Part shown: one piece after another, positions 5,703 to 32,196 of the stretch | Position numbering within the stretch: position 1 is the stretch's first letter | Layout of the letters: the number at the start of each line of letters is the position of its first letter | Source of the DNA: a virus | DNA: 64,000 nt | Direction: 5' to 3' (one strand) | Virus record (IMG/VR): IMGVR_UViG_3300036985_005327 | Location: 24,650-88,649 of that record | Notes under the pieces: generated by a model | What the model was told of the DNA's origin: nothing | Seen by the model: the letters and a program-made list of their open reading frames with translations, nothing else | Database searches by the model: none | Position numbers and translations under genes: made by a program

Positions 5703-7439
5703 ATGGCAACTGACACGATGCGCCTGTTCGACCCCTATCACGGGGGGATGGATGGTACTCATTCGAATCCGTACTACCAATATTCGCAGCTCTACACGCC
5801 CAAGCGGCTGAAAGAACTGTTCATCTGGTGCGAGTATCTCTTCTACCAAAGTCCACACATTTTTGCGGCTCTGCGTAAGTTCGGGGAATACCCCATCACG
5901 AAAATTACGTACGAGACCGTAAACGAACATCTGAAAACAAAGCATAAAGAACTTCTGGAAAAGACTCTGCGCGTTCGTGAGTTTTTGATTAAGTGCTCGC
6001 TCGACAAGTATGTTTACGGTAACGCATTCGTTTCTATGTATCAACCCTTTGTGCGTTACTTAAAGTGTCCGTCGTGTTCCTCGCTCTCGAACATAAAGAA
6101 CACCACGTACACATTTGATGTTTCTAATCTCAAGTTCACCTACACGTGTCCCTCGTGCAAGAAGAGAGCAGTGGTCGGTGAGGACAACATCGAAGATCGA
6201 AAACTTCTTTTGAGCAAGGGCATCAATTTCATTCGGTGGGACGCCAAGGACCTCGACATCGATCATAATCCTCTCACGGGAGAGTCTACGTACTATTACA
6301 AGATTCCTAATGCCATCGTGTCGCGGGTTAACTCCGGTCACAAGATGCTCATCGACACCATGCCGATTGGCTTCTTAAAGGCCATCAAGGAGCACAAGCC
6401 CTTCAAGTTTGCGCGTGACGCCATCTTCCACATGAAGGTCGGCGCTCCTGCCGGTATCAATCCGCAGTGGGGACTACCGCCAATCTTGGCTGCTCTCGAG
6501 AGGTTCCACTTCACGCAGATTCTTAGGAAGGCCAACGAGGCTATCGCCCTGGACTACCTCGTTCCTTTTCGTATTCTTCACGCCTCTCAGGCTTCTGGGG
6601 TTGCTGACCCGGTTCAGCAAATTAGTCTGGCCAAGTGGAAAGACGAACTCGACATCAACATCAGGTTACACCGTAAAGACCCTCTCCATATCATGTACTC
6701 GCCCATTCCAGTGGGTATGGTTCAGCTCGGAGGACAGGGCAGAGCACTCTTGACGCTGGGAGAGATCCAGGAAGCCGAGAAGAGCATCGTAGCAACCCTA
6801 GGAATTCCCATGGAGTTCTTATACGGCGGGCTCACGGGACGCGGGATGGAAGCTACGCTGCGCATGATCGAGAACCAGCTTTCGACACACATCGCGGACC
6901 TTATCGACCTAATGCAGTGGATGGATGATAAGTGTGCGGAGTTCCTTGGTTGGGAAAAAATAACTCTAGGGCTTACGCCATTTCGAATGGTCGATGACTT
7001 CGAGAAGCAACAGCTCATGTACAGTGTCTGGCAGTCCGGAAAGCAAACGGGTTCTCAGGTCATTTCGGACACTACGATGTGCGAGATTTTTGAGATCGAT
7101 CCTAAACGGGAAGAAGAGCGCATTAAGGACGAAACTCTGCGTGGCTCGCGTATCAGCCAACAGATTCAGGCTGAGATGCAGAAGATGCAGAATAATGTCG
7201 CGCAACAGTCGCAACAGGAAGCGAACTCTGGTCCTAGCAACTACAATCAGCAGCAAGTTATCGCGAATGCTGACGGCATCCTGTCTGAGATTATGAATAT
7301 GGAATACGGCGCGAAGAAGAGCCGCCTGCACCAGTTACAGATGGAAGATTTTGTGCTGTACTCTGTGGTCATTCAGCGAATGAAACTACAGAACACTCAG
7401 ATGCTGCAACAAGACCCCGCGCAAGGACAAATGGGATGA
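5703..7439 (+). CDS. portal protein with inserted zinc ribbon
   Basis: YVYGNAFV, IFHMK...WGLPPILAAL and IVATLGIP..FLYG portal-like segments; size; first gene of the head module; CPSC-x23-CPSC insert. Confidence 0.75.
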   Translation: MATDTMRLFDPYHGGMDGTHSNPYYQYSQLYTPKRLKELFIWCEYLFYQSPHIFAALRKFGEYPITKITYETVNEHLKTKHKELLEKTLRVREFLIKCSLDKYVYGNAFVSMYQPFVRYLKCPSCSSLSNIKNTTYTFDVSNLKFTYTCPSCKKRAVVGEDNIEDRKLLLSKGINFIRWDAKDLDIDHNPLTGESTYYYKIPNAIVSRVNSGHKMLIDTMPIGFLKAIKEHKPFKFARDAIFHMKVGAPAGINPQWGLPPILAALERFHFTQILRKANEAIALDYLVPFRILHASQASGVADPVQQISLAKWKDELDINIRLHRKDPLHIMYSPIPVGMVQLGGQGRALLTLGEIQEAEKSIVATLGIPMEFLYGGLTGRGMEATLRMIENQLSTHIADLIDLMQWMDDKCAEFLGWEKITLGLTPFRMVDDFEKQQLMYSVWQSGKQTGSQVISDTTMCEIFEIDPKREEERIKDETLRGSRISQQIQAEMQKMQNNVAQQSQQEANSGPSNYNQQQVIANADGILSEIMNMEYGAKKSRLHQLQMEDFVLYSVVIQRMKLQNTQMLQQDPAQGQMG

Positions 7440-18246: not shown

Positions 18247-18861
18247 ATGACGCCGTTTGAATCAGGTTGGGACGATGTTATTTCGGCGTTGGGTCTTACT
18301 AAAACAGCGTTGGCTGTACCCCCGGCTGCAGCGTCTCAATTGGCAGGCAAGGCGATGTCTACAGGCGTGAACGCCGCGACTAAGACCCCTTGGTACACTT
18401 CTGTGCGTAAAGGCGCGATAGGAGAACCTATCAACTTTGGTAAAGAATTACTGTCAGGTAAAGCCTTTACGCGCGAAGGTATGATGTACGATGGCTTTCG
18501 AGCTAGGTCCACTATGGACAAAGCATTGCTGTATGGGTTGCCCGCATTCATGGGGTATCAGACCATGAAAAGCGATGCCCCTGATAAAGCGCAACAGATG
18601 GGTGGTTTGGTTGCTTCTACTTTGGGTACGAACGCTCTCTTCCGACCTTTTGGTATGCTCGGAAGTATGTTAGCGTACCCAGCATTAGATAGAATAGGAC
18701 GTGGAGCGGTGAACGTAGCTCAAAAAGCCACGGGAACATTCGGTCAATCCGATGCTCAAAATCCGTACGCTTCATTCCAAAGAAAGCAACAACAACCCCA
18801 GCAACAACAGCAGCAACAACCTCAGCAATTTCAAAGAAGAGACTACGGTAGTCTCACTTGA
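18247..18861 (+). CDS. putative head-internal (ejection) protein with leader motif and poly-Q tail
   Basis: N-terminus PFESGWDDVISALGLTKTA followed by Gly/Ala-rich hydrophobic segments; position in head module. Confidence 0.55.
   Translation: MTPFESGWDDVISALGLTKTALAVPPAAASQLAGKAMSTGVNAATKTPWYTSVRKGAIGEPINFGKELLSGKAFTREGMMYDGFRARSTMDKALLYGLPAFMGYQTMKSDAPDKAQQMGGLVASTLGTNALFRPFGMLGSMLAYPALDRIGRGAVNVAQKATGTFGQSDAQNPYASFQRKQQQPQQQQQQQPQQFQRRDYGSLT
18787..18828 (+). repeat. CAA/CAG poly-glutamine microsatellite
   Basis: caacaacaaccccagcaacaacagcagcaacaacctcagcaa encodes QQQPQQQQQQQPQQ. Confidence 0.85.
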
Positions 18862-18907
18862 TATTTAGTCGTACACTTGTGAAAGGTACGCTAGGAGGAA
18901 ACGTTTC

Positions 18908-19297
18908 ATGCTCACTGCTCTTATGTTGAAACAAGCCTACGCTCATGGAGCAGCCTCTGCTCTTCGTGAGGTCGGGTATCCGCTACAAACGGCGCATAAC
19001 ATTAGCGTTAAGTTAGCAGAAGAAGCTATGAGCGCCTCCCCGCAACCCGTGATGCCGCAGGAGATGCAACCCGAGATGCAGCCTGGAATGCAGACCGAGG
19101 AAGTGCAGCCCGAGAGACACCTCTTAGGCCCCAACCCCGGAATGCAGGAACAGCAGGAATCTCCTGATGTCGGAAGCCTAGTCGAAAGCGGAGGGTTGGG
19201 CGTTCCTCAATCCCCTGAAATGCAAGAACAAGAAGCCCCTCCTGAGGCGTACGCAGATGCCACCAACGACGACATCTACGGCGCGCTTAGCGAGTAA
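18908..19297 (+). CDS. putative head-internal protein (acidic, P/Q/E-rich)
   Basis: AGGAGG RBS; LKQAYAHGAASALREVG leader; MQPE repeats. Confidence 0.6.
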   Translation: MLTALMLKQAYAHGAASALREVGYPLQTAHNISVKLAEEAMSASPQPVMPQEMQPEMQPGMQTEEVQPERHLLGPNPGMQEQQESPDVGSLVESGGLGVPQSPEMQEQEAPPEAYADATNDDIYGALSE

Positions 19298-19319
19298 CGT
19301 ACTAAAAGGAGTCAACACC

Positions 19320-20240
19320 ATGGGTCTTTTGAAGAGAGCACATGTTCGCGGTCTTAACTTTGGCCTGATGAAGAACGGGCTGGTATCTTACCCGTCTATC
19401 AAGTGGGCTAACGAAGCCGCTGACGCTGTCGCAGACGAAATTCCGGAAGAGGCTGCTCCGGAAGTGACCGATGACGCTGGCATGAGTGCCAACGAAGTCG
19501 CGCCGATCCTCCAGAAACTCGTCGAAGTGGCTCAAGCGATTGCCGCCAAGACCGAAGCCCCAATGGACGAGAACCTGAACAAGGTCTCTGCGGACCAGAG
19601 CCTCGATCTCACGAAGCTGGCGTACGCGATGGCTGAGCGTCTGATCTATAAGGCCGCTCTCGAGTCGGGCACCACGAACCCCGGTTCGGGTCCTGCCACG
19701 CACGAGCAGGTCTTTGTCGAAGGTGAGACCGACGCCGAGAAGAATCCGTCTTCGGCTGTGACGGGTCCGAAGGGTTCTTCGTCCCTCGACACCAGCGCTG
19801 GTGTCGTCGGCGCGCAGACCGTTCGCCCTGACCAACCGGGCACGCAAGATTCCCCGGCTCCGACGACGCTCGCGGATGTGAAGATCTCTTCCTTCCTACA
19901 GAAGCTGTCGAAGGACGGTACGCTTCCCCAGTCGGGTGGTCGTACGGACCTCGCCACGAACGCGAACCTGAAGGGCACCGTGGTTCCCCAGGGCACGACC
20001 AACGCCAAGACGCCGCACACACCTGTCCCGCTCCAGCGGAACCCGGCCGCTCCGCAGCCCCCGGTGAGTAACGAGATTCAGGCGGATGTGAAGAAGACGG
20101 CGGAACAGCTACTCTCGACTGAGGAAGGTCGCCAGATCCTGCTCAACCTTCATGCTCAGCAGCAGAAGCAGGCGAGTCAAGAGGAAGTCGTGGACGTCGC
20201 GACGAATATCCTTTTGAACGCCCTCAAGTCCGTTCGCTGA
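19320..20240 (+). CDS. putative prohead core/internal protein
   Basis: Start ATG 19320 after AAAGGAG; many K-x-A motifs; strong C-ending codon bias. Confidence 0.6.
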   Translation: MGLLKRAHVRGLNFGLMKNGLVSYPSIKWANEAADAVADEIPEEAAPEVTDDAGMSANEVAPILQKLVEVAQAIAAKTEAPMDENLNKVSADQSLDLTKLAYAMAERLIYKAALESGTTNPGSGPATHEQVFVEGETDAEKNPSSAVTGPKGSSSLDTSAGVVGAQTVRPDQPGTQDSPAPTTLADVKISSFLQKLSKDGTLPQSGGRTDLATNANLKGTVVPQGTTNAKTPHTPVPLQRNPAAPQPPVSNEIQADVKKTAEQLLSTEEGRQILLNLHAQQQKQASQEEVVDVATNILLNALKSVR

Positions 20241-20352
20241 TATTCGTTTCTTCCTTCCGGCAATAATTGACATATAATTCAAGACGAAACCAAATAGAGC
20301 ACGCTTTCGTGTTCTGAGAACTTGGTACTCGTTAACAGGACAGGTTCAAACA

Positions 20353-22998
20353 ATGCCGACACCTATGTCTCCGGATGTTCAAGCGTATGGTCAGCTTCCT
20401 TCCGCTGAACAGGCTGAAGAGCTCTTTAAGCAAAAGTTCTCAAGCATGGCGTACAACGTTATGTTCGCTAAGTTTCCTGACTTAGCTCCACAAATCGTGA
20501 CGTTTAAGCTGCTTGAAACCGACTCTGTAAAAGGGCGCGGTGTCGGTGCATTCATCCTGATGCAAGACAACAAGCCTATCTACATTCCGGTGGTTATGAG
20601 CGACAGCCAGCTTAAGCCACTGGATGTTTTCTATTTCAAGGACCTCAACATTTTCCTTCCCATGAACAAAGAGTGGCTGGAGGAAGTGTCGAAGATGTCG
20701 CTCGAAGAGATGGGTCAGCCCGCTGATATCCCGCAGGGCGTCCCGCGCGACATTGACATCCGTAACGTGGTTATGCCTCCATTTACGTCTTCAGGGCGTG
20801 TGGGTCTCGCTTCCGACATGGGTATCGACTTTCACGCGAAGGCCATGTTCAAAGAAGCCGAAAACAACAACTACGAAGTACACCCTCGGTTCTTGGAGTT
20901 CATTGGTGACGCCGCTCCTCGTTCGGTTCTTGACGGCGTAAAGATTGCGTTTGAGCGTCACCCTGTCCTTCTCCAGAAGCTGGCTCAGTTCCACGGGTCA
21001 ACCGCAGTCGTTAACGCGTTCAAGCGCGGTAACGCCCGCACGGCAACCCAGACTACAGTCCAGACAAAGACTGCTTCTTTGAACAAGGAAGGGTCTGTCC
21101 GTGTCTTTACCAAGACGGCGTCTGCGGCAGAGCTCAAAGAAGCTTTTGGCGAGAAGGCCGCTCAAGCCTATCAGGGTATCCTTCGTAATGGTGTCGCTAC
21201 GCAGGACACCCGCAGAAGTATCGAGAAGGTAGCTCTCAAGATTGAGCACGAGCTCAAGCTCACCGAGCCGGGTCACACGGCTGGGTTCTACCGGCTCTAC
21301 TTCATGGACGCTCCTCCAGACATCTACTACATCATTCCGAAGCCTAAGGGCTCTAGTTGTGACGGCAACAACGCCATTGCGAGTGACGACTACTACAGCT
21401 CTTACGGTGTCAGCCCGCGCCGTAACGCCACCGAATACCTTATCATCAACAAGGATGGTAAGAAGGTGTGGTGCAACACTCACGTTATGGGTGAGCACAT
21501 CCAGGATGATGACTCCTCGCTGAACAGTTACAAGTGGATCAAGACGATCATCCACGGTAACGCTCGTGGCTCGGCACCGTCTGTTCACGACTACGGCTTC
21601 TTCCTTTGCGCCGGTCCTGGTAAGCAGCCCCAGGCTACCAAGCCTTTCTGGGTTCACTCTATCGTTGAGACCAAGGGCATCAAGAAGATCATGGGTGGGT
21701 ACTCGGACGGAACGAAGTACATCATCGATGACAACACGCAGCGCGAAACCATTACGCAGGCTGCTAACGACACACTCATCATTCCGAAAGATGCGAAGTG
21801 GGTCGCTATTCAGACGAACGTCCGCGAAGAGGACAAGTACGAGCTGCGTAACCACAGCCTGAGTAACATCACGGACGACCCGAAGATGGTTACCCATTGG
21901 CTCGACGCGAAACTCCAGGATGCGAAGGCCGAACCTGTCGAGGTTAAGAAGGCAGGCGTCGAGGAGTACTGGGTAGGAAATCATCCTCAAGCTCTTCACT
22001 ACCCGAAGGCTGTTGAGAAGGTAGCGACTACCTACGGCATCTCTGTCGCGGACGCCGCTGGGGTTCTTGTGGAAGTGGAACGCACTCGCTTCCCGTTCAT
22101 GTACGTTCTTCCGATTTCTAAGCTGGCCTCCATCAATGAGATTTTGATGAAGGTTGCTCAGCCGGGAGCGGAAGGACCGATGCAGGGTCAGGGTCCGGCT
22201 CAGGGTGGTCAGCCCCCGATGGCCCCTGAAGGTGGTGGTGGTGCTCCGATGGACCCGTCGCAGCAGGGTATGGACCCATCCATGATGGGTATGGCCCCGC
22301 CGCCCGCACCGTCTCCGATGTCGCCTACTGACCTGGCTATCGCGGAAGCTGTCGATAAGCTGACGCAAGAAAACCAGGTTCGTATGCAGCAACTGCAAGA
22401 CCAGATGCAGCAGCAGCAACAGACGCTGCAGCAGGAGTCGGACCAGAACAACAAGCTGGTTACTCTGCTTCAGCAGATCCAGAGTCGTGCGAGTCAGATC
22501 ACGCAGGCGACAGGCGGAATGATTCCGGCTGGAGCTGAGCAGTCTCCCGCTACGGCCGCAAGGATGCTTGCTCCTGAGCCCGAGCCACAACCTGAGCCTC
22601 CTCCGACTCCGATGATGCCCGAGGGTAATGTGAATCCCCAAGCTGTTGCGGACCAAATCAATCCCAACATGCTTGAGTCTGCCGGTGACCTTGGTAACGC
22701 TGGCGTCTTTGACCTCGCTACGATGTCGATGATGGCTGCGTCTCCTGTTCTCCACGAGATCATCTCGACGTACGTCCCGAACCTCGAGAAGGCAGTTGAT
22801 AACCTCGGTCGTATCCTGCTGACCTTATGGATGCAGGAAGCCGAGGTTAAGCAGATGATTGGTGACCTCGAGTACACCACTCTCGAAGAGCGGCTTCGCA
22901 CCGTCTTCAAGGGTCTCGGCGAGCTCGTCATCAAGATCAACCGAAACGCTGTCAACCCTGGTCAGATGTCGCAACAAGGGATGATGAATCAACAGTGA
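20353..22998 (+). CDS. large putative inner-core/virion protein (881 aa)
   Basis: Long ORF with high-expression codon bias; TKTAS twice, EKVA, SKLAS, MKVA; P/Q/M-rich linker and coiled coil. Confidence 0.65.
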   Translation: MPTPMSPDVQAYGQLPSAEQAEELFKQKFSSMAYNVMFAKFPDLAPQIVTFKLLETDSVKGRGVGAFILMQDNKPIYIPVVMSDSQLKPLDVFYFKDLNIFLPMNKEWLEEVSKMSLEEMGQPADIPQGVPRDIDIRNVVMPPFTSSGRVGLASDMGIDFHAKAMFKEAENNNYEVHPRFLEFIGDAAPRSVLDGVKIAFERHPVLLQKLAQFHGSTAVVNAFKRGNARTATQTTVQTKTASLNKEGSVRVFTKTASAAELKEAFGEKAAQAYQGILRNGVATQDTRRSIEKVALKIEHELKLTEPGHTAGFYRLYFMDAPPDIYYIIPKPKGSSCDGNNAIASDDYYSSYGVSPRRNATEYLIINKDGKKVWCNTHVMGEHIQDDDSSLNSYKWIKTIIHGNARGSAPSVHDYGFFLCAGPGKQPQATKPFWVHSIVETKGIKKIMGGYSDGTKYIIDDNTQRETITQAANDTLIIPKDAKWVAIQTNVREEDKYELRNHSLSNITDDPKMVTHWLDAKLQDAKAEPVEVKKAGVEEYWVGNHPQALHYPKAVEKVATTYGISVADAAGVLVEVERTRFPFMYVLPISKLASINEILMKVAQPGAEGPMQGQGPAQGGQPPMAPEGGGGAPMDPSQQGMDPSMMGMAPPPAPSPMSPTDLAIAEAVDKLTQENQVRMQQLQDQMQQQQQTLQQESDQNNKLVTLLQQIQSRASQITQATGGMIPAGAEQSPATAARMLAPEPEPQPEPPPTPMMPEGNVNPQAVADQINPNMLESAGDLGNAGVFDLATMSMMAASPVLHEIISTYVPNLEKAVDNLGRILLTLWMQEAEVKQMIGDLEYTTLEERLRTVFKGLGELVIKINRNAVNPGQMSQQGMMNQQ

Positions 22999-23708
22999 AA
23001 CACTGTGTCCCAGATCGGCGCTGGAAGCGTCTGAAGTATGCCTTAGCCCAAAAGAATGCGGATTCTATCCGTAACGATTCTTGGCTTTACGGCGTATATG
23101 AGGTGTCTGTTGGGTCTAAAACAGACGACAACGTCCAAGCAGCCTTAGATCTGGGAGACAGCGATTATCACCGAGATTGCATCATGGCTTTCCTGTTAAG
23201 CCGTTCTCCTGTTCAGGAGATATCCAAGTGTCTTGAGATTTCTGCGAGTATCCTCGAGATATTCGAGAAACTTTTCTGTGACAAAAGTGAGATGCGGAAC
23301 AAGTTGGACCACATCTTATTTGCTCGGGAGTACCAGAAGAACGTAGCTCAAGAAGAAGGACGTTGGCTGATTGACACTGGGCTTACGGGAGGACCTACGG
23401 TTCTTCAGGATCGTTTCTTACTAGGTCACGAAGAGCTCAACATAGACGTACGCAGCGTTTCACGTCGCATGATTAACACTGCGTATACTATTGGTATGGT
23501 GGCTCGTGGAAACTCGTTAACGTCAGAGGTATCCAAGCAAGCTCTCAGATGGTTTGATAGCGTAACTAAGTTGCTTTCTGCTCATGAAAAACTGCGTATG
23601 GAAGAGATTGAAGAAAATATCGATGACGCAGTCATCGCGATTAAGCAACAGCAGTTGACGCATACGCCTGAAGAGTTGAAGATACTTCCTGAAAACATCA
23701 TGCATTGA
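22995..23708 (+). CDS. hypothetical protein, possible HTH
   Basis: GTGA-coupled; helix pattern SPVQEISKCLEISASILEIFEKLF. Confidence 0.6.
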   Translation: MKHCVPDRRWKRLKYALAQKNADSIRNDSWLYGVYEVSVGSKTDDNVQAALDLGDSDYHRDCIMAFLLSRSPVQEISKCLEISASILEIFEKLFCDKSEMRNKLDHILFAREYQKNVAQEEGRWLIDTGLTGGPTVLQDRFLLGHEELNIDVRSVSRRMINTAYTIGMVARGNSLTSEVSKQALRWFDSVTKLLSAHEKLRMEEIEENIDDAVIAIKQQQLTHTPEELKILPENIMH

Positions 23709-23717
23709 GAGGCACGC

Positions 23718-24626
23718 ATGTGGACAAGAGCTGAATACGATACCGCAGCGGAACAAATTGGTCGTGATTTTGCCGCTAGCGGCGGGCAATCGCGGATAAA
23801 TGACCTGGCTACGAAAGTGGCTACGGAAAACAACTTGAACCCCGAGGGTATCCAAACGCTGGTTCGCTTGGCGAATGTCGCTGCGTTTCAGGAACTCTTC
23901 ACTAAGCGTGCCGGGTCGAATGACCGCATGATTGAGTTTGAAGTTGGCGATCCTGACTTGGTTGTTAGCAACCTCTATTCCGAGGTCAAACAAGCGGCTG
24001 TTGCACAACAGAAGTACGCGTCTGTGTCTTCGTATGACCGCGCCATGGACTACTACGGGGCTATGACCGTTAAAGTCGCGGAAGACGAGACGGATGAAAC
24101 AGAAGAGCCCGAAGATGACAAAGCGACTCCCGTGTCTGAGGAGGAAACGGTTCTGGGCAAAAAAGTGGATGCACCAGACGCGACTCCGGAAGCGGCTCTT
24201 CTTGACAAGAGGGCTATGGCCAAGTTCAACGTCAAGCGGGCGCAAGAAGCGATTGACGACGAGTCTCGTCGTCTTATGCACGAGTGGGGTATTGCTCTGG
24301 AGAAGGCTGCTCAGTCTGTTCGTGTCGTTTTTGGCAAGCCGACTTTCGACAAGCAAGCTTTTTACGCAGATGTCGTAGCTGACTTGGGTGTCAATGTCAT
24401 TCCAGAGTTGAAGGCAGTCAACATGCTTAACGGCGGTGACGTTGACGAAATCGACAGTGAGAAAATGGCAAGTGCTCCTGAGCATCGCGTTAGTACGCTC
24501 TCGCAGACGAAAGAGACAGCAGATATTCTTGCTTTGGTTAAGCAAGCTTCAGCGGCTCGACAGAAGCGGGAAGGGTACACCGCGTCCTTGACCTGGTTGA
24601 ACGAAAAGATTGCGGAGCTGGCATAA
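23718..24626 (+). CDS. putative prohead core/scaffold protein
   Basis: GAGG RBS; alpha-helical and acidic; about 12 K-x-A motifs. Confidence 0.6.
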   Translation: MWTRAEYDTAAEQIGRDFAASGGQSRINDLATKVATENNLNPEGIQTLVRLANVAAFQELFTKRAGSNDRMIEFEVGDPDLVVSNLYSEVKQAAVAQQKYASVSSYDRAMDYYGAMTVKVAEDETDETEEPEDDKATPVSEEETVLGKKVDAPDATPEAALLDKRAMAKFNVKRAQEAIDDESRRLMHEWGIALEKAAQSVRVVFGKPTFDKQAFYADVVADLGVNVIPELKAVNMLNGGDVDEIDSEKMASAPEHRVSTLSQTKETADILALVKQASAARQKREGYTASLTWLNEKIAELA

Positions 24627-24628
24627 TC

Positions 24629-25291
24629 ATGGGCCTCTTAAAAGGAGTCCTAAATTTTCCTCGTAAGCACCCTGTGGCAGCACTAGGTGTCGCGGGTACT
24701 GCAGCATCCTTATCTCCTGTTATGACTGAAGGAGGTAAATTGGAGGAAGAATCAATGAAGGGTTACACCGGTACTCCTGGCGGTAAGTACGTGTACGCCG
24801 AGCTTGAGGCTGTTGAAGAGCGCAAAGCCTTTCTCGAGAAGAAGGTCGCGTTTGAGAAAGACGCATTTACGCCTACTGTACCGAGAACCTTTGGTAGTCA
24901 ACTTACCGAAGGTCTTGGAATGGGCATCGGTAAGTCTGTGGGTCAGGCAGGCGTAGACATTATTCGCGCTCTCGTTACCGGCGTAGGTAACTCTGCTCGT
25001 TTAGGCCCCGCGACGTTGAGCCAGCAACAGAAGATGCTGGTTGCCAGGATCATCCAGAGCGACCCAATGCTCCACACCTTCGACGCTGAGAGTCCGGGTA
25101 CGTTGGAGCACGCATACACCACGATGGTGCGAACCGCTCCGCATGTCTCGGAAGACCCGAACGTAGTGCTCTCGTTCCTGCGTGAAGCTTCTCAGACAGG
25201 TGGTACGATCAACTACATGACCATGAAGCATCTCGCAGAAGCTGAGAAAGCTTTTATGGAAGCACGTAACGCCACGCGCCCGTGGTTCTAA
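24629..25291 (+). CDS. putative head-internal protein with Gly-rich hydrophobic segments
   Basis: AALGVAGTAAS, EKKVAFEKDAF, GLGMGIGKSVG. Confidence 0.55.
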   Translation: MGLLKGVLNFPRKHPVAALGVAGTAASLSPVMTEGGKLEEESMKGYTGTPGGKYVYAELEAVEERKAFLEKKVAFEKDAFTPTVPRTFGSQLTEGLGMGIGKSVGQAGVDIIRALVTGVGNSARLGPATLSQQQKMLVARIIQSDPMLHTFDAESPGTLEHAYTTMVRTAPHVSEDPNVVLSFLREASQTGGTINYMTMKHLAEAEKAFMEARNATRPWF

Positions 25292-25302
25292 AAGGTGAAG
25301 TC

Positions 25303-25518
25303 ATGACATACGAAGAACTCGACGCTGTTGTTCCTGAGAATGTGAAGCAGGCATACCTCAATCACCAAGTGCACAAACTTGCTGAGGAGCGTACAGGTCT
25401 GACTGATTTCAGCTTTGGGTCTATCGCTCGTTACATGGGTGAGAAGATTGCTTCTCGCCAGATGAGCCACAGTATCATCCAGGATGGTTTGACGGCACTC
25501 AAGATGCTGCGAGGTTAA
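25303..25518 (+). CDS. small head-module protein
   Basis: ATG 25303 after AAGGTG; VKQAY, HKLAE, EKIAS. Confidence 0.6.
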   Translation: MTYEELDAVVPENVKQAYLNHQVHKLAEERTGLTDFSFGSIARYMGEKIASRQMSHSIIQDGLTALKMLRG

Positions 25519-25520
25519 CT

Positions 25521-25931
25521 ATGCACCTTGAACTCTTTACGCACGAGATTTCCAATGCGGTTAAGAGCCATGGTCTCTACGAAGAGGTCGCGGTTAAGAC
25601 GGCGTCGGAAGAGCAGTGCATCGTTGTGGAAGAAGAGAACCCCAAGATCGCCCACGTCGTTATCGATGCTATCCGAACGGAAGCAAGGGTTCATGGGCAT
25701 ACTGGGGTTCCGGGGGTTGTGGGGTTCGTTACGAAGATGGCAGCGTTTAAGCGTGAAGAGCCTTTGACGAATGTGGAGCAGCTCAAGGTCGCCGCCGCTC
25801 TGACCGTTGACGACGCTCTGACGCAAGCCATTTGCGACGAGAAACTCACTGACAATTCACGGTTGAAGCTCGCGCACACAAGAACGTACGGTAGGGAAGT
25901 TTTCATGGAGATCCTCCGAGGGATTCTCTGA
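25521..25931 (+). CDS. small head-module protein
   Basis: GAGG RBS; VKTAS, PKIAH, TKMAA, LKVAA, LKLAH. Confidence 0.6.
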   Translation: MHLELFTHEISNAVKSHGLYEEVAVKTASEEQCIVVEEENPKIAHVVIDAIRTEARVHGHTGVPGVVGFVTKMAAFKREEPLTNVEQLKVAAALTVDDALTQAICDEKLTDNSRLKLAHTRTYGREVFMEILRGIL

Positions 25932-25938
25932 GGACTAG

Positions 25939-28900
25939 ATGCAAAAGATCATTCATCTTGACGAGTACTTTGCTACGGGTGAAGCCACAGTACAGCCGGT
26001 GCTATTGTGGGCAAACAACCGAGCTTGCTACGAGAACATAACGAAGCACGCCAGTGTAGGTAACGAGTACTTCAAGACGATTCAGCCGGTTCCGGGTCAC
26101 AGCTTTGTTTATGTTTTGGCTGTGAGCGACTGGGAGCATTACGCTGAGAATCGTAACGGAGACGGATTCCCAAATGCACCATACAAGCCAATGGCGAGTC
26201 CTCCGTGGATCAGCCAGGCTGAGACTCTGTCGAATTGGCATCACACGTTTGAGTCAGGAAACAACTTCAGGCATCACTGCTTTACGGGGGAAACTCCTAT
26301 TTTGATGGGAGATAGAACCCGTAAGCCCATTGAGGACGTCGTAGCTGGTGACACGGTTATGACCCTTGAAGGGGCCAAAAAAGTAGTGGACGTCATGAAG
26401 CGTGAGTACGCTGGAGACGGACTATCAATTCGTTTGCACGGTAATTACACGCGAATTGACTGCACTACAGACCACCCCGTCCTGGTATACCGTCGCGACC
26501 AGGTTCATTGTCTGCATGGGTACCTTCGACTTGGCGGTATCGTCTGTAAGAAAGTATCTTGCCGAGACCTGACTACCGATATCGGTGAACCCAAGTGGAT
26601 TCCTGCGTCTGAAATTATGGTGGGGGATTACGCGGTATTTCCCAAACCAGAATTAGGAACGAAAAAAGTACCGGAGGCGTTTGCTCGTTTGATTGGCTGG
26701 GTAGCGTCTGACGGTTGTCTAGGAAAACACGGAGATATTCAGTTTACGTTTTCTTCGGAAAATACATTCAAGATAGACGCGGTAACTCAGTGTTTAAAAG
26801 ATAACGGACTAGACACAGGAATGTATCCATCAAAACTGTACGAGCGTGTTCTTCTTTCTATAACAAAGAAAGAGGTAGCAGACGAGCTGGCTAAGTATGT
26901 TACAGGCAAGAAGGCAGAGAAGAGACTTACACCTGAAGTATTTAAGCTAGACGCTGAGAGTGTGCTGCATGTCCTAGGGGCATTCTGTGACGGCGACGGT
27001 CACGTAGCGCGTACGAACAGAAATCTGGGGCAGTTGCGTATACGCTCTGCATCAGAAAGTATGTTATACGTTTTGCACGATCTCATTAGAGCCTTAGGTA
27101 TTCCTGCAACGGTACAGTGGGACGGTTTTGCACACGACTTTGAAAGTCCTCTTGAAGGATACGGGACGTACCACAGTGAGGGTTCTGGAGTCGTAGCTGT
27201 GTCGAAGGGCTACGCGGCTGAAGTGTTAGTTAATAGTGATAGGCACAAGAACTTACCTGAGCCAGGACGTAAAAACACAATTCGTATTTCGGGGTCGCAC
27301 TTTTTAGTCCCAGTGACGGACGTGGAAGAAATCACTTTGGATACGGAAGTGTTCAATCTCGAAGTTGAAGACGTGCACCACTACGTCGCCAATGGTATTG
27401 TGGTTCACAATTGTAATAAAGACCCTGAAAAACGCGTAGGCAAAGTGGTCAAGTCGTTTTGGAACGACACCATGCACCGCGTTGAGTTGTTGATTGACCT
27501 CGACAACGAGAAGGCTCCTGACCTTGCCGCCCGTATTGCTGCCGGGGAATTTCCTCCGGTAAGTATGGGTACGAAAGTATCGTGGGACGTTTGTTCTGTG
27601 TGCGGCAACAGAGCCCCTACTCGTGCTCAGTATTGTGACCACCTGCGCTTCCAGATGCGTGGGGTCATAAACGGAGTGAAGGTAGCGGCTCTTAACCCAA
27701 GCCCAAAGTTCTTTGACATCTCTTGGGTTGTGCGCCCAGCCGACCCGACTGCGTATATGATGAAAAAAGTAGCGAATGGCGTTCCATATGAGCTCATTTC
27801 CGGCGTAAAGGCCGGTGAATATTTAGACCTCATGGACGAACGTAAGCTAGCGGCGCACAAAATAGCCGTGATAGATAAGGTCGTCCAAGGAATTTCTTTG
27901 GACGCAAAGACTGAGAATGTAGACCCCACAGAGCTTGGCAACATACAACGTATGCGTAGTCAAGTTCTCGATATGGGTGGAAACGTTCCGGTAATTCCAG
28001 ACGAGACTCTGCATCATCTTTCGAGCTTCCCGTTGGAAAAGACGCTGTCGTCTGCGTTCTCCGGTGGAATGCTCTTGAAGACTCCTGAGTTGACTAAGCT
28101 CGTCTTCTTCAAGTCGTACCCTAAGCATCACCCAGAGGAAAGTTGGATTGATAAGTCCGTAGGGCTACAAGGCCCCATCATGGAGCTCATCTCGGAACAC
28201 CCACAGATTCTCGATTCTTTTGAGAATGCAGACATCTTTAACGTAAACAAAGATTCTGTGGACCCAAAGATTCTTGAGGTCTTATCCCCGTACTTTGAGA
28301 AGACTTCAGGGATGGGTGACTATCTCAAGAGAAACATTGTCCCAGAGAAGTACAGAGACGAAGGAGAGTTCACCACTCCGTTGACGATTACTGACCCAGC
28401 AACGGGCCAGCAGTATCGGACAACACGTGGTGCAGCTATTCGTGCCCATGATGAAGTGGCCAAGAGAAATCTTTACAAGACCGTTGGCGGTGCTGCTCTT
28501 TTGGGCGGTACTTACAAAGTTTTGGGCTCGGGTCTCAGCAGCAAGGGTCTTGGGGCATTAAAGCCTCTTGTTGGAGGTACTTTAGCTGCGGCTGGTCTTT
28601 CTCATCTTCCGTCTATGGGCAACCACTACATGACTGACCAGGGGGTTCCAATCTCCACAGTCACAGAGTTGTCAAAAACCTCGTCATTAGCTCTTCCTCT
28701 GTTTGGTACTTTGGGTCTGATGACGTTGCTCAGCAGCGACTATAAGTCTCGAATGGCTCGTGGTGAACCTGTTGGGCATCCGGGTCTTCCTTTGGGGCGT
28801 CGTCTTTTGGACCAAGCTGGTGAGTTCACAAACGAGCACCCCATTGCAAGTGCTGCAGTTGGTATGGCAGGGCTTCATACTTTAGGTAACAGCTTGGCGG

Positions 28901-29121
28901 GACGCGCGGCCAATAAACAGATTATTGAGCCTGGAGCTAAGTATCTTCGTCAGGGGTCTGAAGCAGCGGGTAACTGGCTCAAGCGTATGGCGGACGGAAC
29001 AACAAAACTTTCGGCTATGCTCGATGACTTGTTACCTCAGCCAACGGACACTGTTATGCTTCCTAGTCTAGACATCGAAAAAATTGCCGAGAGAATCGGT
29101 GAACTCATCGTCGAGGGCTAA
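25939..29121 (+). CDS. prohead (maturation) serine protease, HK97/herpes assemblin fold, with intein, Zn ribbon and long C-terminal extension
   Basis: NRNGDGF; FRHH (catalytic His region); GKVV; VSMG (catalytic Ser); CSVCG..YCDH; FFDISWVVRPADPTA (EvS.V..PA motif); upstream of scaffold and capsid genes. Confidence 0.85.
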   Translation: MQKIIHLDEYFATGEATVQPVLLWANNRACYENITKHASVGNEYFKTIQPVPGHSFVYVLAVSDWEHYAENRNGDGFPNAPYKPMASPPWISQAETLSNWHHTFESGNNFRHHCFTGETPILMGDRTRKPIEDVVAGDTVMTLEGAKKVVDVMKREYAGDGLSIRLHGNYTRIDCTTDHPVLVYRRDQVHCLHGYLRLGGIVCKKVSCRDLTTDIGEPKWIPASEIMVGDYAVFPKPELGTKKVPEAFARLIGWVASDGCLGKHGDIQFTFSSENTFKIDAVTQCLKDNGLDTGMYPSKLYERVLLSITKKEVADELAKYVTGKKAEKRLTPEVFKLDAESVLHVLGAFCDGDGHVARTNRNLGQLRIRSASESMLYVLHDLIRALGIPATVQWDGFAHDFESPLEGYGTYHSEGSGVVAVSKGYAAEVLVNSDRHKNLPEPGRKNTIRISGSHFLVPVTDVEEITLDTEVFNLEVEDVHHYVANGIVVHNCNKDPEKRVGKVVKSFWNDTMHRVELLIDLDNEKAPDLAARIAAGEFPPVSMGTKVSWDVCSVCGNRAPTRAQYCDHLRFQMRGVINGVKVAALNPSPKFFDISWVVRPADPTAYMMKKVANGVPYELISGVKAGEYLDLMDERKLAAHKIAVIDKVVQGISLDAKTENVDPTELGNIQRMRSQVLDMGGNVPVIPDETLHHLSSFPLEKTLSSAFSGGMLLKTPELTKLVFFKSYPKHHPEESWIDKSVGLQGPIMELISEHPQILDSFENADIFNVNKDSVDPKILEVLSPYFEKTSGMGDYLKRNIVPEKYRDEGEFTTPLTITDPATGQQYRTTRGAAIRAHDEVAKRNLYKTVGGAALLGGTYKVLGSGLSSKGLGALKPLVGGTLAAAGLSHLPSMGNHYMTDQGVPISTVTELSKTSSLALPLFGTLGLMTLLSSDYKSRMARGEPVGHPGLPLGRRLLDQAGEFTNEHPIASAAVGMAGLHTLGNSLAGRAANKQIIEPGAKYLRQGSEAAGNWLKRMADGTTKLSAMLDDLLPQPTDTVMLPSLDIEKIAERIGELIVEG
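26278..27411 (+). mobile_element. intein 3 (378 aa) with LAGLIDADG endonuclease in prohead protease
   Basis: FRHH|CFTGETPILM ... CTTDHP ... LIGWVASDG, VLGAFCDGDG ... VFNLEVEDVHHYVANGIVVHN|C. Confidence 0.95.
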
Positions 29122-29186
29122 TCCCTTGATATGAACCCGTAGCCACCCTAGTATTTGGGTTGGCACCTAACAACTGTGAGGAAAAC

Positions 29187-29771
29187 ATGAATTTCGAAAC
29201 ATTGATGCAGCAGGTTAGCGGGACCGCTACCGAGAAAACCGCCAACGATACTTCGGTTCAGACCAGCACGAAAACCGCAACTGAAGCTGCGCAGGAAGCC
29301 CTCAAGGCTTCTCTGCAGCGTGTCATTGCTCAAGAGAAGACCGCGTCGGCTGACTCTGATCCAGTCGAAGCCCTCATCAAGGAAGCGCAGAGACTGGCCG
29401 ACGACGCGAAGACCGGCGAGCTCATGCACATTCGTATGATGGGAACCGCGTTCGCGGACGCCGCTTCTGAGACCTGGAATCGCAACACTACGCAGAAGAT
29501 GGCGTCAGCTCAGCCGGTAGAGAATACCTACGAGAAGACCGCCGCCGAGGAGCAGGCCATGCTGCAGCAAGCTGCGAACAAGGGCTACACCGACACGATG
29601 ACGAAGGTTGCGATGGAAGCCGGTTACAACGCCACGATGGAGAAGGTTGCTGCTGAGCAATACCAGTCTGGTCAGAACGAAGCTCTGGAGCAAGTACGTG
29701 AAGCTGCTGCCCGTGAGTTCTTCAAGGGCGCTCGAGAAGTCGATGTCCTTCTTTCCCAGATGAATCGTTAA
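29187..29771 (+). CDS. putative scaffolding protein
   Basis: ATG 29187 after GAGG; Ala/Glu/Gln-rich helix; 9 of 12 Lys are in K-x-A; three tandem xxxGYxxTMxKVA-like repeats. Confidence 0.65.
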   Translation: MNFETLMQQVSGTATEKTANDTSVQTSTKTATEAAQEALKASLQRVIAQEKTASADSDPVEALIKEAQRLADDAKTGELMHIRMMGTAFADAASETWNRNTTQKMASAQPVENTYEKTAAEEQAMLQQAANKGYTDTMTKVAMEAGYNATMEKVAAEQYQSGQNEALEQVREAAAREFFKGAREVDVLLSQMNR

Positions 29772-29790
29772 CGTCGAAGGAGGTGTGACA

Positions 29791-29955
29791 ATGTTCTTCG
29801 ACGCCAAGACGAGAACTGAATATGGGATGCTGTTCAAGCAGGCTACAAATACACTCTGTCCTTCTTACGGCGTAAAGAAGGAAGAGGGTCCTTGTAGTAG
29901 CGAAAAGCCGATGAAGAAGGACAAAAAAGATGAGACAGAGCCTGCCAAACGTTGA
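29791..29955 (+). CDS. small protein (54 aa) missed by ORF track
   Basis: AAGGAGGT RBS; MFFDAKTRTEYGMLFKQATNTLCPSYGVKKEEGPCSSEKPMKKDKKDETEPAKR. Confidence 0.6.
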   Translation: MFFDAKTRTEYGMLFKQATNTLCPSYGVKKEEGPCSSEKPMKKDKKDETEPAKR

Positions 29956-30154
29956 CGAACTCGTCGCGAATATCCAGCGCCAAGCTTTGGCTGAGTCAGC
30001 CCGTGCTAGCATGGAGAAAGTCGCTGATGAAGAACGCACGATGACCGAAGTAGGTAAGCTCTTGCGCAAACTGGCATCGGACATTCGGAATGAGGACTCC
30101 ACCCAAGTTACGCTCAACGACGTGCTCGACTTCACGAGCCGGTTTGGGAGGTAA
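29930..30154 (+). CDS. small head-module protein
   Basis: AAGGA RBS; EKVAD, RKLAS. Confidence 0.6.
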   Translation: MRQSLPNVDELVANIQRQALAESARASMEKVADEERTMTEVGKLLRKLASDIRNEDSTQVTLNDVLDFTSRFGR

Positions 30155-30159
30155 TCCCC

Positions 30160-30333
30160 ATGACAAATCCCGCACAGTTTGCTGCAGAGCTTCGGAAGAT
30201 TGCTTCAGAGCTACGAGGTCAGGCTGAAGTCACTGAAAAAGCGAAGACAGAAAAAATCGCAAAAATTTTAGTGGCAGCACGCGGACTTTCAGAACTGAAG
30301 CGTATACTTTCCAGTGAGACGACTGGAAGGTAG
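30160..30333 (+). CDS. small protein (57 aa) missed by ORF track
   Basis: GGAGGT RBS; MTNPAQFAAELRKIASELRGQAEVTEKAKTEKIAKILVAARGLSELKRILSSETTGR. Confidence 0.65.
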   Translation: MTNPAQFAAELRKIASELRGQAEVTEKAKTEKIAKILVAARGLSELKRILSSETTGR

Positions 30334-30343
30334 AGGAAAGAAT

Positions 30344-30682
30344 ATGAATAGGAACCTCATCGCAGATGTTCTCGAGAAAGCCGCGTCGTACTTCGACGAG
30401 GTCAGCCGCGAGCAAGAGAACACCGTCAAAGAGGCTCGTGAGAAAGAGGCTTCTCGGCTTCAGGAGAAGCTGTCGTCTTTCTTAGGTGAGAATATTGACG
30501 TAGCTGTTCTGCGTAAGCTGGCTTCGGCGGGTCCCGAGGTCGCTGGCTTGATCGAGAAAATTGCTGGGTCGGCATTAACGGATAGCCTCGGTGGTCCGGA
30601 CAATACCGTACGCGTTAAGACAGCAAGCACTCACAGTGGTAGCCCCGCTGCGGAGAGCTTTACAAACTGGCTAATGTCCTGA
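30344..30682 (+). CDS. putative scaffold protein
   Basis: ATG 30344 after AGAGG; 6 of 7 Lys in K-x-A; aromatic C-terminal helix FTNWLMS; directly upstream of decoration and MCP genes. Confidence 0.6.
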   Translation: MNRNLIADVLEKAASYFDEVSREQENTVKEAREKEASRLQEKLSSFLGENIDVAVLRKLASAGPEVAGLIEKIAGSALTDSLGGPDNTVRVKTASTHSGSPAAESFTNWLMS

Positions 30683-30721
30683 CCCACTAGTGTGGGCAGG
30701 TAGCTTGAAAGGAAAAGAAAG

Positions 30722-31231
30722 ATGACTCTTCTCGCTTCGAAATTCGACATCGTCACGTGCGACCCGCACCCGGCTGCGCTGGCTTCGCTGGGTTTGACCC
30801 TCGACGTGTATGGCGCTCTGGGTCCGGACTCGGAAGGTTCTCCTCGCGCCGGTTCTATCCAGGCGGGCATGATCTGCATTATGGACTCCGCGAACAGCGG
30901 CAAAGCCATCGTTGCAGACAACGACGATGCCAAGACGAACGCTCCTTGCCTGATGTTCATCGCCGTGGACGGCAACGCCGACTACGACGGTAGCTTCACC
31001 GGCAAGTGCACGTTCATCCAGGGTGGCGTTCGCATCAAGGCTCCGTACTACGTCTCCACGTCGTACACCATCGGTGACATCCTCACCTGTGACAACACCA
31101 CGGGTGGCTCCTTCCGCGCTGCGGCTCAGGCGGAAGCCTGTTACGGAGTCGTTGGTCCGCTCGGTCTCGATTCCACTAACGCCGTGCTGGATGTCATCAT
31201 CCCGCAAGGCATTTCGATGCAGCACCCGTAA
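30722..31231 (+). CDS. putative capsid decoration/cement protein
   Basis: Small beta-rich protein immediately before MCP; YTIGDILT..G..V.P pattern; high-expression codon bias. Confidence 0.6.
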   Translation: MTLLASKFDIVTCDPHPAALASLGLTLDVYGALGPDSEGSPRAGSIQAGMICIMDSANSGKAIVADNDDAKTNAPCLMFIAVDGNADYDGSFTGKCTFIQGGVRIKAPYYVSTSYTIGDILTCDNTTGGSFRAAAQAEACYGVVGPLGLDSTNAVLDVIIPQGISMQHP

Positions 31232-31272
31232 ACCGGGTTAACTAACTTTTCAAAAAGGAAAGAGGAAATAAA

Positions 31273-32196
31273 ATGAGCGCTACTAGCTACCCGGTTGAGA
31301 ACCCGCACATCACGGCGCAGTTCCTCAACAGCAACTTCATCCGCAAAATCGAGAGCGGCCAGGTCAAAGAGGCTCAGGCTGAGGGCGGTGCCTTCATCCG
31401 TGAGAAGCTGCGCCAGGAAGCGGCCGTCCGTGAGATCATTGTTCCCCAGGGCATCACTGAGGACCAGATCGACCGTACGCTCGACAGCGATCAGCCGATC
31501 AAGATCATCGACAAGGAGCCCGACTCGGTCGCGACCTTCGTCAACTTCCAGGGCACCGGCCAGCGCACGTGGTTCCGTGGCAAGCGCTACGCGGTGAAGT
31601 TCGGCAAGATCGAGAGCCAGCGGTTCACCAAGTCGAAGTTCGAGCTCATGACCTACACGAGCGACATCCGGCAGATCTTGTCGGACAACTCCGTGAAGGA
31701 CATGGCGGACGAGGAAGATCGCAAGTTCTACGAGACCATCCTCGCCATCACGGTTGCGAACCCGAGCGTTCAGCAGACCAACGGTGCCTTCCAGAGCGGT
31801 ACCTTCAAGCTGGCCATGCGCGCCATGCTCGAGCGTCGTCGCCCCGTCGGCAAGATGCTCATGGCGAAGGCCCGGTACCTCGACGCCCTGGACCTCCCGG
31901 CGACCTCCGTCGGCGACGACATCGCGAAGCGCCACTTCGACGAGGGCATCGAGTCCTCGCAGAAGCTTTGGGGCATCCCGGTCGTGACCACGGTTAAGCC
32001 GCAGGTCTACTCGATGAACCACGCGTTCATCTTCGCCCCCCAGAGCCCCAACAACTTCCTCGGGAACTTCTACCTCTTGCAAGATGCGACTCTGTACATC
32101 GAGCAGAAGGCGGACACGATCATGTTCTGGACGTACGAGGCGCTGGGTATCGGCGTTGGTAACTCGCTGTCCATCCAACAGATCATCTTCCCGTGA
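31273..32196 (+). CDS. major capsid protein (HK97 fold)
   Basis: 307 aa; strongest C/G-ending codon bias in window; follows protease, scaffold and decoration genes; FIREKLR..., DEEDRKF, LWGIPVV, C-terminal YEALGIGVGN. Confidence 0.8.
   Translation: MSATSYPVENPHITAQFLNSNFIRKIESGQVKEAQAEGGAFIREKLRQEAAVREIIVPQGITEDQIDRTLDSDQPIKIIDKEPDSVATFVNFQGTGQRTWFRGKRYAVKFGKIESQRFTKSKFELMTYTSDIRQILSDNSVKDMADEEDRKFYETILAITVANPSVQQTNGAFQSGTFKLAMRAMLERRRPVGKMLMAKARYLDALDLPATSVGDDIAKRHFDEGIESSQKLWGIPVVTTVKPQVYSMNHAFIFAPQSPNNFLGNFYLLQDATLYIEQKADTIMFWTYEALGIGVGNSLSIQQIIFP

Follow-up and report, generated by a model that had tools for sequence, protein, structure and literature searches.

The head block and its K-x-A motif

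The subject of this analysis is a 64,000-nucleotide stretch of viral DNA (hereafter the window; positions 24,650 to 88,649 of IMG/VR record IMGVR_UViG_3300036985_005327) and, within it, a block of head-assembly genes on the + strand that comprises 13 mostly small open reading frames (ORFs), a 1060-amino-acid (aa) ORF at 25939 and the 307-aa major capsid protein at 31273 (Table 1; ORFs are referred to by their first position). A portal homolog and a set of RNA polymerase genes lie upstream of the block, and tail genes lie downstream. The 13 head ORFs are strongly enriched in the tripeptide K-x-A, which is probably what the phage-encoded prohead protease, the predicted product of 25939, recognizes in its substrates. 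None of the 13 matched a PHROGs family, and the six of them scanned against Pfam gave no match.

Table 1. Features of the head block and portal homolog, with their K-x-A content
Position	Strand	Feature	Remarks
5703..7439	+	578-aa portal homolog
18247..18861	+	204-aa ORF at the block edge	K19-T-A, K55-G-A; 2 vs 1.4 expected, not enriched
18908..19297	+	129-aa head-module protein	2/2 Lys in K-x-A (K8, K35); p=0.014
19320..20240	+	306-aa head-module protein	6 K-x-A vs 2.5 expected
20353..22998	+	881-aa homolog of Arash gp218	13 K-x-A, clustered at residues 167-292 and 479-600
22995..23708	+	237-aa head-module protein	3 K-x-A
23718..24626	+	302-aa scaffold/core-like protein	12 evenly spaced K-x-A (12/20 Lys); p=0.0002
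24629..25291	+	220-aa protein	2 K-x-A (residues 72, 77), preceding Gly-rich hydrophobic part
25303..25518	+	71-aa protein	K-x-A at 3/4 Lys; p=0.002
25521..25931	+	136-aa protein	K-x-A at 5/8 Lys; p=0.0004
25939..26277	+	Predicted protease, N-extein, residues 1-113	Ends in RHH strand with putative catalytic His
26278..27411	+	378-aa intein, C114 to N491	LAGLIDADG endonuclease; sits at the active-site His strand
27412..29121	+	Predicted protease, C-extein	Ser542 motif VSMG; CxxC...CxH insert
29187..29771	+	194-aa scaffold-like protein	K-x-A at 9/12 Lys; last site 12 residues from C-terminus
29791..29955	+	54-aa protein	1 K-x-A, at K16
29930..30154	+	74-aa protein	K-x-A at 2/3 Lys
30160..30333	+	57-aa protein	2 K-x-A
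30344..30682	+	112-aa protein	K-x-A at 6/7 Lys; p=0.0002
30722..31231	+	169-aa ORF	0 K-x-A (0.6 expected)
31273..32196	+	Major capsid protein, 307 aa	43% identical to Arash gp226, annotated major capsid protein

Pooled over the 13 head ORFs (within 18908-30682; 2773 aa, the protease left out), there were 66 K-x-A where 18.9 would be expected (Poisson p=3e-17), which places the motif first among 1600 gapped dipeptides (all residue pairs at spacings of 0 to 3). Shuffling of single ORFs gave p<=0.0004 for 23718, 25521, 29187 and 30344, and p<0.025 for 18908, 19320, 20353, 25303 and 29930, while block-wise shuffling over 8 to 40 residues, by which local helical composition is kept, left K-x-A at a z of about 11. 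In the same pool K-A, K-xx-A, K-xxx-A, A-x-K and R-x-A were all at or below expectation, and the 3.5-fold enrichment of K-x-A compares with 0.8-fold for R-x-A, 0.7-fold for K-x-G and 0.8-fold for K-x-S; the motif is thus strict, with no substitution by Arg, Gly or Ser. The runner-up pairs, K-xxx-E, K-xx-S and E-K, owe their signal to being flanks of the K-x-A motif itself. At the DNA level the pattern AARNNNGCN was found 66 times in the coding frame and 4-7 times in each of the other five, and the motif is spelled by mixed codons. No paralogy or internal repeats were detected among the head ORFs (blastp, E<=0.01). At least one K-x-A falls within the first 40 residues of 11 of the 13 head ORFs, compared with 8 of 58 other ORFs, a placement suggestive of propeptides.

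An earlier note on this DNA had drawn attention to the motif from manual counts, and every count that we re-derived matches it (9/12, 6/7, 5/8 and 12/20 Lys in 29187, 30344, 25521 and 23718, respectively), as do the individual sites it listed: TKTAS, present twice in 20353; TKHAS, KKVAN, RKLAA and EKIAE in the protease; and VKEAQ in the capsid protein.

Conservation in relatives and cultured phages

The same signal was sought in the complete 10 kb preceding the capsid gene in 26 IMG/VR loci, which make up 22 distinct sequence sets: K-x-A is the top-ranked pair in 25 of the 26, or 21 of the 22 distinct sets, with p between 7e-6 and 4e-15. It is also top-ranked in the head module of the cultured Salmonella phage Arash (44 vs 19.7 expected), and in that of the cultured Vibrio phage D181 it reaches 50 vs 21, with K-xx-S second. 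Conservation is higher for Lys residues belonging to the motif than for Lys elsewhere in the same proteins (0.61 vs 0.41, p=2e-5), and likewise for motif Ala relative to the remaining Ala (0.64 vs 0.42, p=2e-6). Even in a fast-evolving scaffold protein (25-73% identity) the triplets either keep their alignment column or a new one arises a few residues off.

Alignment of 722 pooled sites, which come from related sequences and hence do not count as independent events, gave an extended signature around the strict Lys and Ala, with F/L/M at P5, E/V at P4, T/V/I at P2, S/A/E/Q at P1' and E/D at P2' when Lys is numbered P3 and Ala P1. Neither P4 nor P2 admits Pro, and none of the 722 has Ile at P1'. 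None of these preferences was seen at the 215 K-x-A sites of tail ORFs that served as controls.

A predicted assemblin-fold protease interrupted by an intein

The ORF at 25939 is interrupted by an intein with matches to Intein_splicing (37.5 bits, above the cut-off), Hint and LAGLIDADG_3 in Pfam, an N-terminal Cys, a C-terminal His-Asn and a +1 Cys, so that its boundaries read RHH|C...VVHN|C. Relatives without the intein are colinear over the junction and read RHH-V-NKDP uninterrupted. The position of the intein varies: it follows RHH in the window and in one relative (L015), lies directly after VSMG in five others (L051, L053, L062, L065 and L067) and is missing from most relatives. The two insertion points mark the two conserved active-site motifs.

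We modelled an intein-free homolog (L002:5762-6700) with AF2, which returned a confident core at residues 40-230. When this model was compared with 48,161 chains by VIA-align, the best match was T4 gp21 (5jbl; Z=10.1 over 128 aa, root-mean-square deviation 2.9), followed by the protease of varicella-zoster virus (1vzv; Z=8.8), with unrelated MCE-domain chains at Z<=7.2. Foldseek likewise placed herpes proteases on top, but with non-significant E-values. By the modelled structure of this homolog the product of 25939, intein removed, is an assemblin-fold prohead protease, as the earlier note had proposed. A partial match to PHROG 18299, 'head maturation protease', was also obtained (E=7e-8, over 67 residues only); sequence and profile searches of the PDB with the protease found only intein matches and designed coiled coils. 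In the window, Arash and D181 alike, the protease gene is followed by the scaffold-like ORF, the small ORFs and the capsid gene, in this order.

The putative catalytic residues H115 and S166 (numbered in the modelled homolog and ~50 residues apart) are invariant in 26 homologs. In the same set K37-x-A39-S40 is nearly invariant and K234-V-A236 invariant, both in disordered segments flanking the core, which is where self-processing sites would be expected. In the window's protease the candidate propeptide site is K36-H-A38|S (DNA 26044-26052), further K-x-A lie in the linker of the C-extein at residues 581, 610, 636 and 641, and the ~400-aa domain after the linker has a K-x-A (29080-29088) at its end, 10 residues short of the C-terminus.

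The core of the fold also carries an invariant C-x2-C ... C-x-H cluster (about 27580-27640 in the window; residues 176-192 of L002:5762-6700) that resembles a zinc knuckle and gave weak Pfam zinc-ribbon matches. Neither T4 gp21 nor any herpes protease is known to us to carry such an insert.

In the major capsid protein, which has more than 1000 relatives in metagenomes, one K-x-A lies in the N-terminal arm (K32-E-A34, the VKEAQ site; DNA 31366-31374), and neither K32 nor A34 varies among 14 homologs that are 61-76% identical. To judge from the sequence, this is a candidate maturation site, use of which would remove 34 residues. A second, only partly conserved copy, at residue 179, falls within the fold.

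Probable cleavage after K-x-A and its alternatives

We consider it fairly probable that the phage's prohead protease recognizes K-x-A and cuts behind the Ala, so that Lys would occupy P3 and Ala P1. That it is a cleavage motif is argued for by its strictness, its conservation across the clade, its multiple copies in scaffold-like proteins, its N-terminal placement in most head ORFs, its position on either side of the protease core and its invariance in the capsid arm. The bond that would be cut is assigned by analogy: an i,i+2 geometry is shared with T4/phiKZ-type motifs, and Val at P4 and Ser at P1' match the measured logo of SPN3US gp245 (PMC10052503). The earlier note had the protease cutting K-x-A|S/A and degrading scaffolds; of this, a motif that is strict, conserved and placed as a cleavage motif would be has stood up, while the bond after Ala comes by analogy only.

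We propose a maturation programme of the following kind. Splicing out of the 378-aa intein would yield an assemblin-fold serine protease with its His in RHH and its Ser in VSMG, which would be co-assembled in the prohead and free itself at the K-x-A on either side of its folded core. The proteins 23718, 29187, 25521, 30344 and 25303 would then be chopped into peptides of <=45 aa able to exit the shell, a fate that can be likened to that of T4 gp22; for 23718 this bound follows from complete cutting at its 12 even sites. The scaffold and the protease would have their short C-terminal tails clipped in the fashion of the herpes M-site (PMC4498786), and short N-terminal propeptides would be removed from other head-module proteins, including 34 residues from the capsid protein.

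Several observations weigh against this account. No cleavage has been reported for any member of the clade, and the Arash virion proteomics paper gives coverage and spectral counts, with no peptide lists and no mention of a protease. Some scaffold-like proteins were covered to 100% in Arash virions, which fits complete clearance poorly, though that preparation listed 116 proteins. Not all sites can be cuttable, since capsid K179 and the sites of 20353 fall inside predicted helices or folds. None of the 26 protease members matched a Pfam peptidase family. Finally, the tail ORFs of the window hold 10 K-x-A against 20.1 expected, and the 908-aa tail sheath has 0 among its 33 Lys, an absence the earlier note had already pointed out; however, only 3.0 were expected in the sheath, so that its zero is not significant (p about 0.05), and in tail ORFs of relatives observed and expected counts are about equal, so that avoidance of the motif in tail proteins was dropped as an argument.

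An enzyme that reads K-x-A could cut elsewhere, i.e. after Lys as in HK97, before Lys, or after the Glu of K-x-A-x-E according to the ancestral A-x-E rule of phiKZ and SPN3US. T4- and phiKZ-type enzymes, the nearest studied phage proteases in fold, do cut after Glu (PMC5694885), and in the window Glu is enriched two residues after the motif Ala (17 of 66 sites), with a nominal excess of A-x-E in the pooled head ORFs (42 vs 27). This excess is, however, entirely due to K-x-A-x-E: once such sites are set aside, A-x-E falls to 25 vs 20.9 in the window and 413 vs 398.5 in the relatives. Glu follows the motif in just 15-26% of sites, compared with a strict Lys and Ala, and a Glu-type code is not seen in the substrates, where [SAG]-x-E is at 1.06-1.09x and [LI]-x-E at 1.29x against 2.6-3.5x for K-x-A. 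An ancestral A-x-E, S-x-E or L-x-E code was rejected on these grounds, and since the preferences at P4 and P1' also fit Lys at P3 and Ala at P1, we regard another register as unlikely.

Comparably unlikely, in our judgement, is that K-x-A is a binding or modification motif that is never cut, such as a docking site for the capsid shell or the scaffold lattice, or the target of a lysine-modifying enzyme. Multiple copies in assembly proteins, the location of many sites in predicted helices and the high coverage of scaffold-like proteins in Arash virion preparations would all be in keeping with such a role. Against it stand the bracketing of the protease's folded core, the propeptide-like N-terminal positions and a P5-P2' signature with Pro excluded, as is typical of extended protease substrates; moreover, PHROG and Pfam scans of head-block ORFs gave no lysine-modifying enzyme.

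We hold it to be very improbable that the excess of K-x-A reflects an Ala/Lys-rich composition of helices or coiled coils, or a signal at the DNA level: the head proteins are indeed Ala-rich and helical, and the profile of the protease linker weakly matches designed coiled coils with KKIA repeats, but only the i,i+2 spacing is enriched, in one direction, with Lys not Arg and Ala not Gly or Ser, in 13 non-paralogous ORFs, the score survives local shuffling, and the pattern occurs in frame only and in mixed codons, whereby both a DNA motif and a compositional artefact, the refutation that the earlier note had itself put forward, were rejected.

Comparison with known systems

The motif of T4 is (L/I)-x-E. 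Besides the best fold match, the likeness to T4 gp21 includes an enzyme encoded in the head module, a two-residue i,i+2 determinant and a motif present in multiple copies in core or scaffold proteins, as well as N-terminal propeptides, trimming of the capsid N-terminus and self-processing sites, which here are candidates. T4 differs in cutting after Glu, whereas the strict pair here is Lys and Ala, and the present protease stands apart in its C-terminal domain, its CxxC...CxH insert, its intein in this genome and its lack of a match to any Pfam peptidase family.

The giant-phage proteases phiKZ gp175 and SPN3US gp245 cut after (S/A/G)-x-E or A-x-E. In these phages propeptides are fragmented at multiple sites and the C-terminus of the protease is autocleaved (PMC10052503, PMC5694885). 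They share with the present system the P3-x-P1 logic, Val at P4 and Ser at P1', and their genomes also encode a multisubunit RNA polymerase. In contrast to them, P1 here would be Ala and not Glu, P3 would be Lys and not a small residue, [SAG]-x-E is not enriched once K-x-A-x-E is allowed for, and the capsid protein has just 307 aa with a candidate N-terminal piece of 34 residues.

Herpesvirus assemblin, which cuts its R- and M-sites at (V/L/I)-x-Ala|Ser, is the second-best fold match and resembles our candidate in Ala at P1, a favoured Ser at P1' and fusion of the protease to a long C-terminal assembly domain. The candidate cuts just past the core and ~10 residues before the C-terminus are reminiscent of its R- and M-sites (PMC4498786). 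In the phage, however, P3 would be Lys and not hydrophobic, and sites are far more numerous and spread over many separate small proteins. The likeness in specificity is probably a convergence within a shared ancient fold.

Reach beyond the head module

The earlier note had called the code proteome-wide, a mark of everything inside the head, and had listed outlying genes that carry it. This did not hold: K-x-A enrichment is confined to the head-assembly module and one outlying ORF of the contig. In the complete Arash genome K-x-A numbers 37 vs 18.4 expected in the head module and 210 vs 243 in the remaining proteome, and window ORFs outside the head block are at background (49 vs 52). As for the outlying genes, 39275 has 3 K-x-A vs 1.4 expected and 48710 and 49239 are at background, none of them significant.

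The one outlying ORF (C1:9612-10619, +; 335 aa) lies outside the window, about 15 kb upstream of its start, and has 11 K-x-A vs 2.8 expected (p=1e-4). To judge from its sequence, this gene remote from the head module encodes a candidate substrate of the protease.

Among cultured phages outside the clade, the protease finds its closest sequence relatives, at 26-33% identity and E 1e-10 to 1e-17, in Bacillus phage G (gp19), in Rhodococcus phage E3 (gp77) and in Bxz1-like actinophages. In phage G (L083, 5137-29619) there are 17 K-x-A vs 8.9 expected, with sites flanking the protease core and the portal ends. In Mycobacterium phage ET08 (L084) and Rhodococcus phage E3 (L085) it is the C-terminal parts of the protease that are dense in [K/R]-x-A; in E3, R-x-A reaches 26 vs 13.6. 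Across these phages K-x-A, or [K/R]-x-A in the actinophages, occurs around the protease core, in its long C-terminal parts and near the capsid N-terminus. Compared with the clade the enrichment is modest, and Arg replaces Lys in the high-GC actinophages. The code may extend, as basic-x-Ala, to phage G and Bxz1-like actinophages, a lead and not a result; our literature searches turned up no cleavage data on any of these phages (for phage G, none is described in PMC12484599), and we found no literature on the capsid N-terminus of Bxz1-like phages.

We would give about even chances to a broader proposal, namely that the proteases of this lineage have given up the P1-Glu rule of T4/phiKZ-type enzymes for a strict pairing of Lys at P3 with Ala at P1, which mirrors the Ala|Ser bond of herpesviruses, in a clade that takes in more than 1000 capsid relatives and the cultured Salmonella and Vibrio phages, and maybe phage G and Bxz1-like phages as well. 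We found no paper reporting a Lys-x-Ala motif for a prohead protease.

Significance

Prohead proteases decide which head proteins persist in the virion and which are cleared, and their specificity has been measured for few phages. If the proposed code is correct, scaffold, core and propeptide regions become annotatable across a phage clade that is large and has next to no annotation, mature termini can be predicted for cryo-EM and proteomics, and virion and scaffold proteins can be recognized from sequence alone. The specificity of the assemblin fold would then be evolvable, with a phage branch having reached the herpesvirus-like Ala|Ser bond. Should the basic-x-Ala extension also be true, the code would be among the most widespread maturation codes of large phages. 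Salmonella phage Arash, which grows on a laboratory strain of S. Typhimurium, offers a cultured and non-exotic system in which a Lys-x-Ala code is directly testable.

Other observations on the head block

At the upstream edge of the block, 18247 had no homolog in the flanks that were fetched. The Arash counterpart of 20353, gp218, is an abundant virion protein. The AF2 model of 20353 itself is of low confidence (pLDDT 62) and matched no solved fold with Foldseek, and the ESM Atlas returned nothing; about residues 602-760 of this protein form a low-complexity stretch rich in Pro, Gln and Met. By position and size, 23718 is a homolog of Arash gp220, which has 10 K-x-A. The Arash counterparts of the protease and of 29187 are gp222 and gp223, respectively.

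Directly upstream of the capsid gene, the 169-aa ORF 30722 is free of K-x-A, and its homologs have 0-2; to go by its position, the product may decorate the head or sit on its surface, out of the protease's reach.

Identification of 20353 as the portal was ruled out, because its model showed no portal fold (Foldseek) and the portal homolog is 5703-7439. The latter gave no PHROGs match but is 28% identical to Arash gp204, annotated portal (E=2e-90), and it lies upstream of the RNA polymerase genes, apart from the remaining head module.

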